Notes under the pieces: model-generated
Told to the model about the DNA's origin: nothing
The model's database searches: none
Seen by the model: only the letters and a program-made list of their open reading frames with translations
Position numbers and translations under genes: made by a program
DNA from: Candidatus Nanoarchaeia archaeon
GTDB lineage: Archaea > Nanobdellota > Nanobdellia > Woesearchaeales > GW2011-AR4
DNA length: 64,000 nucleotides
Assembly (NCBI GenBank): GCA_035288865.1
Contig: DATDZA010000016.1
Span: forward strand, 3,945 to 67,944
Direction: 5' to 3'
Shown: positions 10,340-27,208 of the stretch, one piece after another
Position numbering within the stretch: the stretch's first letter is position 1
How the letters are laid out: every line of letters begins with the position of its first letter

Positions 10340-12352
10340 ATGGATAGTTTCAGGCAGGTTTGTGAAGATATTGTTAAGGAGCTTAAGAAAAGCAACATAA
10401 AAACACAGCGCCAGCTAAATAAGCTTAAGCTTCAAATTCTGAATAAATACAAGTCTAAGGGAAATATAATCCAAATACCAAAAAACGCTGACATATATTT
10501 TGCTGCTTCAGAAAAAGACAGGAAAAAGTTCATGAAGCTTCTTTCATTAAAGCCAGTCCGGACAATAAGTGGAGTTGCTCCGATTGCATTGATGTCAGAG
10601 CCTTATCCGTGCCCCCACACTTTGAAAGGAATAGGGCCGTGCACGTATTGTCCCGGAGGTCCGGGCTCTCCATTCGGGGATGTTCCGCAAAGCTACACCG
10701 GCAAAGAGCCGTCAACAAGAAGGTCAATAAGAAGCAACTACGACCCTTACATGATAGTTTTCAACAGGCTCGAGCACTATGTCGCAATGGGAAAAGTCCC
10801 TGACAAGGCCGAAATTATTGTTCAGGGAGGCACTTTCACATTTTTCCCAAAACTGTACCAGGAATATTTCATAAAATACGCGCTGAAAGCAATGAATGAC
10901 TTCTCAAGATTATTTTTCGACGCCGATGGAAACATAGACATGATGAAATTCAAGATTTTCTTCGAGCTGCCAAGAATAATCTCCGAAGAGGAAAAAAGAA
11001 CCAAGTCAATACAGATTAAATTACTAAAGATTAAGCATCTGGATTTAAGTAATTTGAAAATAAAAGAAGAAGTCGATGAGTGGTTTTTTAATTATAATTC
11101 AAAATACGAAAATAATCAGGGAGGGAACTTTATAATTGCACATGATGCAACACCATCCGCCCTCCACCCACCCCCTACTGTAGAACTCAACAGTGCCGGC
11201 AGTTCATTAAAGCTAATAAATTTGGATAATGCAAATGTCAGGGCAATAAAAAATATCCAGAATAAAATAAAAGTAGAAAATTTAACCCCTTTATCATTAA
11301 AACACATTCAGAAAGAAAATGAAACTGCCTTAATAAGATGTGTTGGCCTTACAATAGAAACAAAAAGTGATTTTGGAAAATTATATCACGGAAACATTAT
11401 GCTGGAATTGGGCTGCACGAGAGTGGAACTTGGCATACAGTCAATTTATGATAGTGTTCTTAGGTCAACCAACCGTGGAAACACAGTTGCCGATAATATT
11501 GAATCAATAAGAATTCTGAAAGATTTGGGATTTAAAATCAACGCGCATTATATGCCTGGACTGCCTTTGACAACAAAGAAAATGGATTTGAAAGGGTTAA
11601 GAGAATTATTTGAAAACCCGGATTACAAGCCGGACATGCTGAAAATCTATCCGTGCATGGTGATGGAAGGAACAAAATTGTATGATGAATGGAAAGCCGG
11701 AAAGTTTAGTCCTTTAAAAACAAAGGAAGCCGCTGAAATTATTGCAGAAGCGAAAAAATACTTTCCTGAATTCGTAAGGATCACCAGAATACAGCGCGAC
11801 ATACCTACCTATATGACAGCAGGGGGGGTTGACAGAACTAATTTAAGGCAATACGTTGAGATACTGTGCAAAGAAAAAGGAATAAAATGTCGTTGTATAA
11901 GATGCAGAGAAGCTGGATTAAATTCAATTCAAAACAAAAAAATTGATCTAAAGAATCTTAGAATAAAGGTTATAGAATATAATGCCTCACATGGCAGAGA
12001 ATTCTTCATAGCCGCAGAAGACAAAGAAACAGATATATTATTTGGATATTGCAGGTTAAGATTCCCCTCACAAATCCTAAGAGAGGAAATAACAAAAGAC
12101 TCTGCATTAATAAGAGAAATTCATGTATATTCAGCAGCAGTCCAGATAGGAAAGAAGTCAGATGAAAGTTTCCAGCATAAAGGCATAGGCAAGCAATTAA
12201 TGGCGAGATCAGAGGAAATTGCGAAAGGGCATGGGAAAAATAAGATTGTTGTAATAGCCGGAATTGGGGCCAAACAGTATTTTTCCAAGCTTGGATATAC
12301 CTATGATGGCCCATATATGTCTAAGCATATACCACTGGACATCTCTGCCTAA
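10340..12352 (+). CDS. elp3: Elp3-type radical SAM/GNAT tRNA U34 carboxymethyl-modification enzyme, carrying a large internal insertion
   Basis: Radical SAM cluster CPHTLKGIGPCTYCPGG. Also IVQGGTF, RCVGLTIETKSD, TRVELGIQS and a C-terminal GNAT motif QHKGIGKQLM. At 670 aa it is longer than typical archaeal Elp3. Confidence 0.9.
   Translation: MDSFRQVCEDIVKELKKSNIKTQRQLNKLKLQILNKYKSKGNIIQIPKNADIYFAASEKDRKKFMKLLSLKPVRTISGVAPIALMSEPYPCPHTLKGIGPCTYCPGGPGSPFGDVPQSYTGKEPSTRRSIRSNYDPYMIVFNRLEHYVAMGKVPDKAEIIVQGGTFTFFPKLYQEYFIKYALKAMNDFSRLFFDADGNIDMMKFKIFFELPRIISEEEKRTKSIQIKLLKIKHLDLSNLKIKEEVDEWFFNYNSKYENNQGGNFIIAHDATPSALHPPPTVELNSAGSSLKLINLDNANVRAIKNIQNKIKVENLTPLSLKHIQKENETALIRCVGLTIETKSDFGKLYHGNIMLELGCTRVELGIQSIYDSVLRSTNRGNTVADNIESIRILKDLGFKINAHYMPGLPLTTKKMDLKGLRELFENPDYKPDMLKIYPCMVMEGTKLYDEWKAGKFSPLKTKEAAEIIAEAKKYFPEFVRITRIQRDIPTYMTAGGVDRTNLRQYVEILCKEKGIKCRCIRCREAGLNSIQNKKIDLKNLRIKVIEYNASHGREFFIAAEDKETDILFGYCRLRFPSQILREEITKDSALIREIHVYSAAVQIGKKSDESFQHKGIGKQLMARSEEIAKGHGKNKIVVIAGIGAKQYFSKLGYTYDGPYMSKHIPLDISA
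11118..11173. repeat. 56-nt repeat element, copy A, in frame inside the Elp3 insertion
   Basis: AGGGAGGGAACTTTATAATTGC..(19 nt)..GCCCTCCACCCACCC. It shares 20 of its first 22 nt and all of its last 15 nt with copy B at 23858-23912. Confidence 0.75.
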
Positions 12353-14862: not shown

Positions 14863-14967
14863 CAGCTTGTAGCTCTTTTGCCGTATTTGCACTGCTGTTT
14901 CAAGCATATCTCTAAAGATATTTGTCACAGCTGTATTTTATGACAACGATTTTCACATTGCCGTAGC

Positions 14968-15000
14968 AAAAAAGCGTGTAGTCCAGCATTTCTAATGCTG
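14968..15000 (-). terminator. Hairpin plus T6 downstream of the DGR target gene
   Basis: On the minus strand: CAGCATT-AGA-AATGCTG (7-bp stem, 15000-14984), then TTTTTT (14973-14968) 10 nt further on. Confidence 0.4.
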
Positions 15001-15036
15001 AGACAAAATAAGAGATTAAGAATGAATTAATAAAAA

Positions 15037-23948: not shown

Positions 23949-24980
23949 ATGTACAAAATAAAAATTATTCCAGAAGATTTCATTGTAAAAGAATTAAGCA
24001 AAGTTAGTGCAAAAGAAAACGGGCAATACGCTTATTTTATTCTCAAAAAAACTAATTATTCTACAGTTCGTGCGTTGGAGGTAGTATCTCAAAAACTTAA
24101 CATTCCATTAAAAAATATCGGTTTTGCAGGAAATAAAGACAAGAATGCAGTCACCGAACAGGCGATATCAATCTTCAAAGGAAGCAAAAATTCTGAAAAT
24201 CTGAATTTAAGAAATATTGAATTAAAATATTTAGGAAACGGAAAAGAGCCTATTTCTTTGGGCGATTTGGACGGCAATGTATTCACAATTACTATTAGAA
24301 ATCTAAATAATGACGAAGTCAAAAAGATAAAAAATCTTGAAAACAAAAGAATTAACGTGCCAAATTTATTTGGGCCCCAAAGGTTCAGCAATAATAACCA
24401 TCTTGTCGGAAAAGCGATTATAAGAAAAGATTTCAAAAAAGCTGTTGAATTGATTTTAGAAAATAGCGGTAATATTGAGGAAAATATTAAAGTTTATCTA
24501 AAAAACAGTAAAAATGACTATGCTGGAGCATTAAGACTTATTTCATTAAAAACAAGAAAATTGTTTGTACACGCTTATCAGTCATTTTTATTTAATAGGG
24601 TAACTGATGAATATTTAAGAAATAATGAGATTAATAATAAGGACGACAAAATAAAAAATTATGATAAAATGGAAAATATAGAAATACCAATTATCGGCTT
24701 TAATTTTGACTTAAATGAGACAAAAAATAAAGTATTAAAAAATATAATCAAGAAAATACTTGAAGAAGAAAAATTAAATCCAAGAGATTTTATAATCAAT
24801 CAAATGCCAGAATTAACATCAGAAGGAACTCAAAGATATTTATTTTTCGAACTCAAAGGCCTAAAAATATTAGAAATTAATAATGATGAATTAAATGAAA
24901 GTATGAAAAAAATGAAAATTAATTTTACGTTGCCGAAGAGCTGCTATGCAACTACATTAATAGAATTTATTTTTCTGTAG
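23949..24980 (+). CDS. truD: tRNA pseudouridine synthase TruD/Pus7 family
   Basis: Motifs IIPEDFIVKE, GFAGNKDKNAVTEQ (catalytic Asp motif) and NLFGPQRF. Confidence 0.85.
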   Translation: MYKIKIIPEDFIVKELSKVSAKENGQYAYFILKKTNYSTVRALEVVSQKLNIPLKNIGFAGNKDKNAVTEQAISIFKGSKNSENLNLRNIELKYLGNGKEPISLGDLDGNVFTITIRNLNNDEVKKIKNLENKRINVPNLFGPQRFSNNNHLVGKAIIRKDFKKAVELILENSGNIEENIKVYLKNSKNDYAGALRLISLKTRKLFVHAYQSFLFNRVTDEYLRNNEINNKDDKIKNYDKMENIEIPIIGFNFDLNETKNKVLKNIIKKILEEEKLNPRDFIINQMPELTSEGTQRYLFFELKGLKILEINNDELNESMKKMKINFTLPKSCYATTLIEFIFL

Positions 24981-25973: not shown

Positions 25974-26441
25974 TTATCCCAAATAGCCTATGTCCTCTTT
26001 TATATCTGTTTCGGTTTTCCATGATTCTTTCATTTTATTCAAGTATTTTTTCATTTCTTCCTTGATTGGCCCCCATTCGGAAAAAAAGCTGCTGATAAAT
26101 TCAGCCTCATCTTTTTCGCTGCCATTCAAAGATAATTCCACAGTGCGCCTGCTTAACAACATTAATTTCCTGTAAAGATCAAAAGCTTCTTTCTTTTCAT
26201 CATCCTCAAATACCCTGGATTCATGCATCGCCGACAAGTTCGAGCCGTCAGGCTGCAGCAATTCTTCAAATAATCCTGAAAAAAAATCCAGTTTCTCTGC
26301 AATTCTTCTGACAATGGATTTTATGAGAAAATCAGTTTCATCCAAATCGCTGAGCTCAAATTCATAGTTTATCTCCTTAAATTCAGGAAGCCTGTATTTT
26401 TTCCGGAGTTCGCTGTACTGTTTTTCTGTTTCTTCTGCCAT
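25974..26441 (-). CDS. Hypothetical acidic protein
   Basis: The start was moved to MAEETEKQYSELRKKY (26441). The longer ORF-track N-terminus overlaps the tRNA at 26459-26543. Confidence 0.5.
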   Translation of the reverse strand: MAEETEKQYSELRKKYRLPEFKEINYEFELSDLDETDFLIKSIVRRIAEKLDFFSGLFEELLQPDGSNLSAMHESRVFEDDEKKEAFDLYRKLMLLSRRTVELSLNGSEKDEAEFISSFFSEWGPIKEEMKKYLNKMKESWKTETDIKEDIGYLG

Positions 26442-26458
26442 TTTTTGATTACTATAAA

Positions 26459-26543
26459 AGCCCCCGGCCGGATGTGCGCCGGCGACCTTCTGATGGCTTG
26501 CTTTGATACAAGTCAGACGCAATAGCTACTATGCTACGGAGGC
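26459..26543 (-). tRNA. tRNA-Thr(UGU)-like gene with a 12-nt intron at 37/38 (26495-26506) and non-canonical D and T loops
   Basis: - Acceptor GCCUCCG/CGGGGGC, 7 pairs including one G.U.
- D arm GCAU-AGUAGCUA-UUGC.
- Anticodon stem UCUGA/UCAGA; loop CUUGUA|intron UCAAAGCAAGCC|A.
- The intron forms a 4-bp helix CUUG/CAAG flanked by 3-nt bulges UA|U and CC|A.
- Variable region AGGUC.
- T stem GCCGG/CCGGC, but the T-loop is CGCACAU.
- Discriminator U, then a T-run.
- TATA-like TTTAAATA lies about 30 nt upstream. Confidence 0.62.
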
Positions 26544-26605
26544 ATTAAGGAGTATCCTTAGAATTAAAACTTTATTTAAATAGCTTTTGAATATTTCAAT
26601 CCGGT

Positions 26606-27208
26606 TTATTCCTCGTACCCAAACTGTCGTGCAAAGAACGGCTCTGGAATTGCTGTATAATTTCTTAACTGCAAATACTGCTTTACTTTTGCGTGAATCC
26701 TATTAGCATCGCGCCATAATTCTTTCTCCCGCTTGTCAATTTCTCCGACTATTATTCTGGCTTCATAAATGTGCTTAAGGTGCCTCAACATCCAGTGATC
26801 AGCCCAGATACGCTTAAAATCTTTTTCTATTCTTGGCCTGAAAAACATTTCTATCTCGCAGTTCTGCGCAGTCATCTTCTTGCCCTGCTGAACTATCTCG
26901 ACATTTTGCAGATAGACTATATGCGCATCAATATCAAGATGATTTCTGAAATAAGTGTTATACTTCCCTTCCGGATATTTCCAAAGCCTCCACCAAAACC
27001 AAATCTCCTTCCCGCCCCTGTGGATACCTTTCTGGTAAACATTTTCAGAATATAGAATTTCAACGTCATCGCCGTCTTTGCTTCCGTCAGCGCCAAACCA
27101 CCCTTCTTCCAGCATAGTTTCATGAAGCATAATGTACAGGTTCCTTAATGAGAATACATCCCTATATTTGACTTTAATTTCAGGAAGCTGCAAGATGTCT
27201 CCGGCCAT
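26606..27208 (-). CDS. Hypothetical protein
   Basis: 200-aa Trp-rich ORF. No motif recognised. Confidence 0.5.
   Translation of the reverse strand: MAGDILQLPEIKVKYRDVFSLRNLYIMLHETMLEEGWFGADGSKDGDDVEILYSENVYQKGIHRGGKEIWFWWRLWKYPEGKYNTYFRNHLDIDAHIVYLQNVEIVQQGKKMTAQNCEIEMFFRPRIEKDFKRIWADHWMLRHLKHIYEARIIVGEIDKREKELWRDANRIHAKVKQYLQLRNYTAIPEPFFARQFGYEE

Follow-up and report, generated by a model that had tools for sequence, protein, structure and literature searches.

Textbook accounts treat G18, T54, Ψ55 and A58 as invariant nucleotides of tRNA, which gave the TΨC arm its name. In the canonical elbow, A58, G18, R57 and the G19:C56 pair form a stack, G18 bonds Ψ55, and U54 and A58 are joined by a reverse-Hoogsteen pair (PMC4810234; PMC7912444). 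A screen in yeast SUP4oc showed no tolerance of single mutations at G18-U55, G19-C56 or U54-A58 (PMC4117946); where a natural gene differs at both partners, compensation is therefore to be expected. Here we describe a gene for tRNA-Thr(UGU) that carries A, C, G and C in place of G18, U54, U55 and A58. It lies in a 64,000-nucleotide window (the whole stretch of DNA analysed, to which all position numbers refer unless a contig is named; positions 3,945 to 67,944 of contig DATDZA010000016.1, assembly GCA_035288865.1) from Candidatus Nanoarchaeia archaeon. We consider it very likely that this is a working tRNA-Thr(UGU) gene of a Woesearchaeote with an alternative, compensated elbow, and not a damaged gene.

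Working tRNAs outside the U54/A58 or G18/G19/U55/C56 rules are found among initiator and mitochondrial tRNAs. The eukaryotic initiator tRNA has A54 and A60 and keeps G18, Ψ55 and A58. Metazoan mitochondrial tRNAs lose the elbow contact, and their partner RNAs have co-evolved (PMC4810234). By contrast, the tRNA described here is an elongator of a free genome with a full-size elbow, substituted partners and a standard RNase P RNA. Staphylococcal tRNA-Gly species NP1, NP2 and NEW are natural tRNAs without the G18/G19 and U55/C56 partners, and these occur alongside canonical isoacceptors, show weak EF-Tu binding and supply peptidoglycan synthesis (PMC4574755). Unlike these, tRNA-Thr(UGU) keeps G19:C56 and shows a matched swap of partners, and no canonical UGU or GGU isoacceptor was found in its assembly.

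The closest structural parallel is found in other RNAs. A T-loop consists of a UA_handle (a trans Watson-Crick/Hoogsteen pair on a Watson-Crick pair) and a UNR or GNR turn; contact with the intercalating nucleotide is normally made by the G 3' of the handle's U (G-clamp), tRNA having the rarer U-clamp (PMC2615604). Among solved cases, 92% have U:A as the handle pair; C:A, A:A, G:A, C:C and G:G are minor forms, and C:C makes up 1% (PMC2615604). G-clamp T-loops are found in rRNA, RNase P, riboswitches and aptamers (Jaeger et al. 2009, PMC2615604). They have a five-nucleotide core in which a trans Watson-Crick/Hoogsteen 1:5 pair sits on G:C, position 2 is a G and position 4 is a purine; a distant intercalating nucleotide, often an A, bonds the G, and C:C is a rare documented substitute for U:A. 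The loop described here matches them in the G and the purine and would match them in the 1:5 pair and the intercalator. They differ in the RNAs that harbour them, the U-clamp of tRNA (U55) being regarded as universal. Full-text literature searches yielded no description of A18:G55, of C54:C58 or of odd tRNA-Thr loops in DPANN archaea.

Read along the minus strand from 26543 to 26459, the gene has the sequence GCCUCCG UA GCAU AGUAGCUA UUGC G UCUGA CUUGUA[UCAAAGCAAGCC]A UCAGA AGGUC GCCGG CGCACAU CCGGC CGGGGGC U, the intron being bracketed (features are listed in Table 1). The 5' exon contains the acceptor 5' strand, the D arm, the anticodon stem 5' strand and C32 U33 U34 G35 U36 A37, and the 3' exon the anticodon stem 3' strand, the variable loop, the T arm, the acceptor 3' strand and the discriminator U73 (26459). 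Seven pairs including a U4.G69 wobble form the acceptor stem (GCCUCCG/CGGGGGC), three Watson-Crick pairs and a U13.U22 mismatch the D stem (GCAU/UUGC), and both the anticodon stem (UCUGA/UCAGA) and the T stem (GCCGG/CCGGC) are paired. Splicing would leave an anticodon loop of seven nucleotides (C32 U33 U34 G35 U36 A37 A38) with a threonine anticodon and a purine at position 37. In archaea, the threonine identity set comprises G1:C72, C2:G71, C3:G70 and U73, as known from studies of the threonyl-tRNA synthetases (ThrRS) of Haloferax volcanii and Aeropyrum pernix, and all four elements are present in the gene.

Canonical archaeal elongator tRNA-Thr, represented by the organism's own tRNA-Thr(CGU) and by tRNA-Thr of a sister order, is matched in the 73-nucleotide (nt) cloverleaf with stems of 7, 4, 5 and 5 base pairs (bp), in the four identity elements, in the variable loop AGGUC and in the lack of an encoded CCA. 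It is also matched in U33 and A37 and in the nucleotides making tertiary contacts, namely U8 and A14 (U8:A14), G15:C48, G19:C56, a purine at 57 (A57), a pyrimidine at 60 (U60) and the closing pair G53:C61. By contrast, all of U54, U55 and A58 are replaced in the T-loop, and A18 (26527) stands where the near-universal G18 is expected. Thus, of the elbow set, G19 and C56 are present, and the TΨC signature is gone together with its modification sites. The first-pass annotation of this DNA had described the same stem pairing including the U.U mismatch, the 12-nt intron between nucleotides 37 and 38, a T-loop without U54, U55 and A58, and an A in place of G18. The sequence agrees on each of these points, and the numbering of the A is substantiated by the related genes described next.

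Positions 18 and 55 switch together. In 143 odd-loop tRNA genes from the first 150 loci, the D-loop AGYAGCYA was always accompanied by a T-loop starting with UGC or CGC. Seven twin genes have the same D arm with the D-loop AGUGGCUA or AGCGGCUA and a UUCAAYU T-loop, and one genome holds both kinds. Because the twins read AGUGGCUA or AGCGGCUA, the variable base of the D-loop is position 18, while G19 and C20 are constant. A numbering as G18 C19, which would have allowed a G18:C56/C19:G55 mini-helix, was dropped since the AGUGGCUA twins show position 18 to be the variable one. A18 is combined with G55 in 122 of 132 distinct genes, and G18 or C18 with U55 in the other ten; a mixed state (A18 with U55 or G18 with G55) was not found among them. 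The states at 18, 54, 55 and 58 were A-U-G-A (107 genes), A-C-G-C (8), A-U-G-G (6), A-U-G-U (1), G-U-U-A (8) and C-U-U-A (2). C18 represents a third 18:55 state, seen in two tRNA-Thr genes with the D-loop AGUCGCUA, a normal UUCAARU T-loop and U55. The switch is not confined to the threonine family: two tRNA-Val(GAC) genes from two Woesearchaeota metagenome-assembled genomes share the D-stem 5' strand GUCU, one having A18:G55 (AGUAGCUA with UGCAACU) and the other G18:U55 (AGUGGCUA with UUCGAAU).

The odd D arm was searched for in 401 genomes of the phylum with a completeness of 90% or more. It was present in 134 genomes, all belonging to the order of this organism (Woesearchaeales), and in none of about 120 genomes of other orders. 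Up to one mismatch was allowed, so that a few of the matches are G18 or C18 variants, and the pattern requires the GCAU/UUGC D stem, so that the count is an underestimate. Distribution across families is patchy. Many relatives carry the odd elbow in all three threonine isoacceptors, and in a sister-order genome of the same class tRNA-Thr(UGU) and tRNA-Thr(CGU) are canonical (AGUGGUA with UUCAAAU). These comparisons indicate that A18:G55 is derived within the order, stably inherited and present in most of its tRNA-Thr genes.

The second switch concerns positions 54 and 58. The odd tRNAs have T-loops of the pattern UGC-R-(A, rarely G or U)-N-U. A single discrete class departs from it with the loop CGCACAU, and the gene belongs to this class. 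C54 occurs only together with C58 and A59, and the 132 distinct genes include no 54/58 intermediate. About 25 tRNA-Thr genes share the heptamer. They include UGU as well as GGU isoacceptors, their T stems are of at least nine kinds, and their introns, where present, measure 12 to 74 nt. A pattern scan of metagenomes gave 45 matches, of which about 25 lay in coding sequence by chance and were discarded. Within the genus, the class is found in four genomes, where the introns differ and one anticodon stem is compensated.

Conservation of the gene extends well beyond its loops. BLAST searches with the 85 nt gave matches in 34 of 41 relatives, the threonine cloverleaves at the parsed loci of these relatives are intact throughout, and identical or near-identical genes occur in independent assemblies and metagenomes. 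Across 127 distinct spliced threonine tRNAs, 95.3% of the stem cells are paired, and double compensatory changes have occurred at 15 of the 21 stem pairs; in the CGCACAU class (8 distinct genes) double changes affect 10 of the 21 pairs with the loop unchanged. G1:C72, C2:G71 and U73 are kept in all 127 tRNAs and C3:G70 in 124, as is the U13.U22 mismatch (124 of 127). C20 is invariant in the gene family. A TATA-like TTTAAATA box, preceded by an A-rich stretch, lies 30–37 nt 5' of the mature end and retains its position and sequence upstream of orthologues with otherwise diverged flanks. The U-rich trailer is probably the transcription stop and 3'-processing region. Promoter box, trailer and conservation are marks of an expressed archaeal tRNA gene, and we infer from them that the gene is expressed. 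The suggestion of the first-pass annotation that the joint loss of elbow partners reflects covariation and not decay is thus borne out by the joint switching of 18 and 55, the restriction of C54 to genes with C58, and the compensatory changes in the stems.

Infernal with the Rfam model RF00005 scored the gene at 46.2 bits (gathering score 29; E = 5e-9; model positions 1–71) in a local E-value scan, within the range of 37–58 bits obtained for other tRNAs of the genome. Our own tightened cloverleaf scan also finds it. ARAGORN missed the gene in the window at default settings, and a run on the whole genome with the intron option reported 23 tRNAs without tRNA-Thr(UGU). Because of their pre-filters, the Rfam gathering scan of the window and the RF00005 scan of the genome missed it as well.

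The assembly comprises 1.46 Mb in 53 contigs with 36.7% G+C and is 91% complete. Public contigs with the same D arm are labelled almost entirely as Woesearchaeota, Nanoarchaeota or Nanoarchaeia, which places the organism in the Woesearchaeales, within the DPANN archaea. Many tRNA genes of the genome contain one or more introns, and all but three of roughly 28 recovered cloverleaf genes have a UUCRAWU-like T-loop. The exceptions are tRNA-Thr(UGU), tRNA-Thr(GGU) with AGCAGCCA/UGCAAAU, and tRNA-Lys(CUU) with AGCCUGCUUA/UUGAAAU. Searches with acceptor ends, UGU anticodon arms and cloverleaves recovered three threonine tRNAs with three elbow designs: UGU (A18/C54/G55/C58), GGU (contig 9, 3722–3806 (+); A18/U54/G55/A58; 12-nt intron) and CGU (contig 52, 47491–47585 (+); canonical AACCUGGUA/UUCAAAU; 21-nt intron). 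Neither a second threonine tRNA with the anticodon UGU nor a canonical tRNA-Thr(GGU) was detected by these searches in the 91%-complete assembly. In 652 long open reading frames (ORFs), threonine is encoded by ACA (42%), ACU (33%), ACC (13%) and ACG (12%); ACA together with ACU/ACC thus accounts for 88% of threonine codons. The UGU anticodon reads ACA (and ACG), and by standard wobble rules ACA is read only by a tRNA with U34. Since the gene is the sole UGU gene found and only U34 reads ACA, it is essential, unless a second copy resides in the missing 9%. Likewise, because no canonical UGU or GGU isoacceptor was found, tRNA-Thr(UGU) most plausibly serves translation.

The tRNA-Lys(CUU) gene (contig 12, 80245–80332 (+)) is exceptional in another way, in that its outer elbow pair is flipped, with C19 in the D-loop and G56 in the T-loop. 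In the genus, C19 with G56 is found in ten genomes with different T stems and G19 with C56 in three, and no mixed state was seen.

Covariation thus shows two switches in the elbow of tRNA-Thr(UGU). In one, A18:G55 takes the place of the D-loop/T-loop contact G18:Ψ55; in the other, confined to a subset of genes including this one, C54:C58 takes the place of the intraloop reverse-Hoogsteen pair U54:A58, always together with A59. Loop nucleotides 54–58 (C-G-C-A-C) would still form a T-loop motif, with a GNR turn (G-clamp) instead of a UNR turn (U-clamp). A18 would intercalate between A57 and residue 58 and bond G55, G19:C56 would remain the outer face, A59 and U60 would be bulged, and C54:C58 would be the handle pair. 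Compared with the G-clamp signature, G53:C61, G55, A57 and the bulged A59 U60 fit, and the 1:5 pair would be C:C; the distant nucleotide for the clamp G is assigned as A18 by its covariation with G55. We infer a change of the elbow from U-clamp to G-clamp within one and the same motif, the handle being C:C. RNase P, the ribosome and other factors should then still be able to read the L shape and its outer face. Structural equivalence of this kind fits the retained tertiary-contact nucleotides, the full RNase P RNA (full-length archaeal form, 132 bits) and the use of three elbows with one ThrRS, which is encoded by a single ordinary full-length gene. Since the bases are replaced in the sequence, the usual modifications of U54 (m5U/Ψ54), Ψ55 and m1A58 are not possible in this tRNA.

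Three other causes of the altered elbow were considered. Loss of Pus10 was set aside, as the weak 'Pus10' match is Cbf5, so that a Ψ55 synthase is present; no Pus10 reached threshold in the genome. Besides Cbf5, a TrmI-like methyltransferase is encoded, and the two would serve the remaining tRNAs of the cell. Relaxation of the elbow following loss of an RNA-based RNase P is ruled out by the full-length archaeal RNase P RNA. Finally, an adaptation specific to ThrRS is unlikely, given one ordinary ThrRS and three elbow types in one cell.

On its way to the ribosome the transcript would be processed in the following manner. It would be transcribed from the TATA-box promoter, its 5' leader trimmed by RNase P, the 12-nt intron cut at 37/38 by a single alpha-type EndA at a relaxed bulge-helix-loop motif, and the exons joined by RtcB; CCA would be added. 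With its identity set intact, the tRNA would be charged by ThrRS, and the mature molecule would decode ACA, the commonest threonine codon.

For the intron, the first-pass annotation had proposed a helix-bulge-helix layout with a CUUG/CAAG central helix and the bulges UA|U and CC|A. The 4-bp helix between C32-G35 (CUUG) and intron CAAG is sound, and so is the 3-nt 3' bulge CC|A, which is made up of the last two intron bases and A38 and lies beside the anticodon stem. The UA|U part does not hold, as the 5' splice site (A37|U) has no closed bulge and the inner helix amounts to at most one C-G pair around AAA. Folding of the anticodon arm plus intron (ViennaRNA, minimum free energy) leaves the 5' splice site within a hairpin loop of 6 nt. 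The intron motif is therefore best modelled as a relaxed bulge-helix-loop (hBH/BHL) and not as a strict hBHBh'. Orthologues have introns of 12, 18, 19 or 74 nt at the same site, or none. Archaeal bulge-helix-bulge and relaxed (hBH, HBh', BHL) introns cut by EndA (Kaneta et al. 2018, PMC5829648; A. pernix tRNA-Thr, PMC3241643) are alike in the 37/38 site, the 3-nt 3' bulge, the 4-bp central helix formed by nucleotides 32–35, and the presence of EndA and RtcB in the genome. The difference from strict bulge-helix-bulge introns is that there the inner helix closes the 5' bulge, which here lacks it. Relaxed bulge-helix-loop forms are documented for archaeal introns, and DPANN lineages are known that combine an alpha4-type EndA with numerous disrupted tRNA genes (PMC5829648).

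The genome encodes a single EndA of 197 amino acids (aa), with N-terminal and catalytic domains at 94.7 and 57.1 bits, and an RtcB ligase (554.8 bits, full model; contig 49, 4496–5842 (+)). A second, short RtcB match covering the first 26 model positions is located 2.6 kb upstream (contig 49, 1773–1850 (+)). Other tRNA genes with two introns or with D-arm introns were noted on contig 29 (around 11380–11541 (-)) and contig 1 (17507–17603 and 19684–19803). In this group, an orphan 3' half consisting of T arm and acceptor strand, GAGGGUUCAAAUCCCUUGAGGCCCA, directly follows another tRNA, suggestive of a gene that is split or heavily disrupted.

Among the alternatives, the one that fares best also accepts a functional gene and holds that the rewired elbow is adaptive and not neutral. 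G55, C54 and C58 would evade factors that read U54/U55/A58 or the G18 contact, such as modification enzymes, viral or host nucleases directed at the elbow or T-loop, or quality-control factors, or they would tune ribosome handling. A18:G55, with or without C54:C58, would then be a selected 'stealth' design that frees the main threonine tRNAs from T-loop enzymes or nucleases, and convergent selection, not drift, would lie behind its repeated occurrence in DPANN archaea. Such a scenario would account for discrete, strongly conserved states without intermediates, for the recurrence of the exact heptamer CGCACAU in two isoacceptors and on many T stems, and for a loop that cannot take the modifications at 54, 55 and 58. 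However, three elbow designs are present in one cell and are evidently all accepted by ThrRS, elongation factor, RNase P and ribosome. Moreover, no candidate nuclease or partner protein has been identified, the neighbouring genes give no hint, and the patchy distribution among families fits drift between two stable states equally well. We therefore regard a selected design as unlikely.

Somewhat less probable still is an elbow that is loosened or folded differently, either with G19:C56 and C20:G55 kissing and A18 bulged, or floppy like that of some mitochondrial tRNAs. D-loop G19 C20 and T-loop G55 C56 are indeed self-complementary 5'-GC-3' dinucleotides, C20 does not vary, and the standard reverse-Hoogsteen pair U:A is not open to C54 and C58. 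Yet C20 is equally present in the G18/U55 twins and does not covary with position 55, whereas position 18 does, which points to an 18:55 contact. In addition, all other tertiary-contact nucleotides are kept, and G-clamp T-loops with an intercalated base are the common form in solved RNAs (PMC2615604).

The first-pass annotation had left open whether the locus is a working tRNA gene whose elbow is unusual, a tRNA-like element with a regulatory role or a pseudogene, and the first of these is the one supported. A non-proteinogenic or regulatory tRNA-like RNA of the staphylococcal tRNA-Gly type, serving the downstream gene or another pathway, is very improbable: the odd D- and T-loops do resemble the idiosyncratic loops of the Staphylococcus aureus NP tRNA-Gly (PMC4574755), and a protein gene without Pfam match begins 17 nt downstream, with an ATG at 10–17 nt in several orthologous loci, but codons making up 88% of those for threonine would be left with no canonical tRNA-Thr(UGU) or (GGU) detected to read them, the elbow recurs in all three threonine isoacceptors of many relatives, and no Fem-type or other aminoacyl-transferase gene is adjacent. 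A decaying pseudogene or assembly artefact, to which four changed near-universal nucleotides and the failure of ARAGORN and the fast Rfam scan might point, is hardly credible in view of near-identical copies in independent assemblies and metagenomes, intact stems with compensatory evolution, a conserved promoter box, a normal covariance-model score and the lack of another ACA decoder among the tRNAs found. The checks that the annotation had recommended likewise favour the functional reading, with a covariance-model score well above the gathering score, no other tRNA-Thr(UGU) in the assembly, and odd loops conserved at orthologous loci.

Several points weigh against a working gene with a compensated elbow as we propose it. 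The relatives compared are kin, so that the number of independent switches is small, although the change to A18:G55 can be seen at least twice, in Thr and in Val. Gene conversion could explain the presence of CGCACAU in two isoacceptors. The three-dimensional model with its G-clamp and C54:C58 pair draws on covariation and on precedent in other RNAs, and the C:C trans Watson-Crick/Hoogsteen pair is rare and not strictly isosteric with U:A. Expression, splicing, modification and aminoacylation of its product are all predicted from DNA sequence. At 91% completeness, the missing part of the genome may hold a second UGU gene, and the tRNA census is incomplete, many genes carrying non-canonical introns. 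Finally, the RtcB match holds one in-frame TAG, for which a sequencing error, a split gene or an insertion may be responsible.

With respect to the surroundings of the gene, the first-pass annotation was right to place it 17 nt upstream of a protein start and to note that the ORF track masks it. The ATG at 26441 lies 17 nt past the tRNA 3' end, and a TTG-started ORF (25974–26522) overlaps the tRNA gene, the ATG being the likelier start. Neither the 155-aa product of this gene nor that of the protein gene on the other side (26606–27208 (-), 200 aa) has a Pfam match. A TruD-family tRNA pseudouridine synthase (PF01142, 246.7 bits) is encoded at 23949–24977 (+), 1.5 kb from the tRNA gene. U13 is the classic target of TruD/Pus7; the nearness of this gene to a tRNA gene with a conserved U13.U22 mismatch is probably a coincidence. 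The sole match to an RNA family at gathering level in the window is an RT-16 RNA (RF03019) at 14864–15001 (-), with 74.5 bits over the full model. The RT-16 motif is described as associated with reverse-transcriptase genes.

Table 1. Features of the tRNA-Thr(UGU) locus, in positions of the window
Feature	Position	Strand	Details and basis
Precursor tRNA-Thr(UGU) gene	26459..26543	-	85 nt, 73 nt spliced; sequence, Rfam, cloverleaf scan, orthologues
5' exon (nucleotides 1-37)	26507..26543	-	sequence; alignment of 127 spliced relatives
D-loop AGUAGCUA	26523..26530	-	A14 G15 U16 A18 G19 C20 U20a A21
Anticodon UGU	26508..26510	-	sequence
Intron UCAAAGCAAGCC, 12 nt, between nucleotides 37 and 38	26495..26506	-	sequence; ViennaRNA fold
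3' exon (nucleotides 38-73)	26459..26494	-	sequence; alignment of 127 spliced relatives
T-loop CGCACAU	26472..26478	-	C54 G55 C56 A57 C58 A59 U60
TATA-like box TTTAAATA, putative archaeal promoter	26573..26580	-	conserved upstream of orthologues
U-rich trailer UUUA, directly after U73	26455..26458	-	T-rich trailers in nearly all orthologues
Downstream protein gene, 155 aa from ATG at 26441 (neighbour, not part of the tRNA)	25974..26441	-	

Our analysis contributes a natural and testable alternative elbow to the known repertoire, one in which a G-clamp T-loop would be combined with an intercalating A and with C:C pairing inside the loop. Which partners change together is evident from covariation in more than 100 genes. 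The odd loops also explain in part why tRNA finders under-call the tRNA sets of DPANN archaea. For the biology of these organisms, tRNA-Thr(UGU) would be an example of a tRNA that by nature lacks modification at positions 54, 55 and 58. The presence of three threonine elbows and of a tRNA-Lys with a C19:G56 flip in one cell bears on what the readers of the elbow, that is, RNase P, the L1 stalk, the CCA enzyme and modification enzymes, require of a tRNA.

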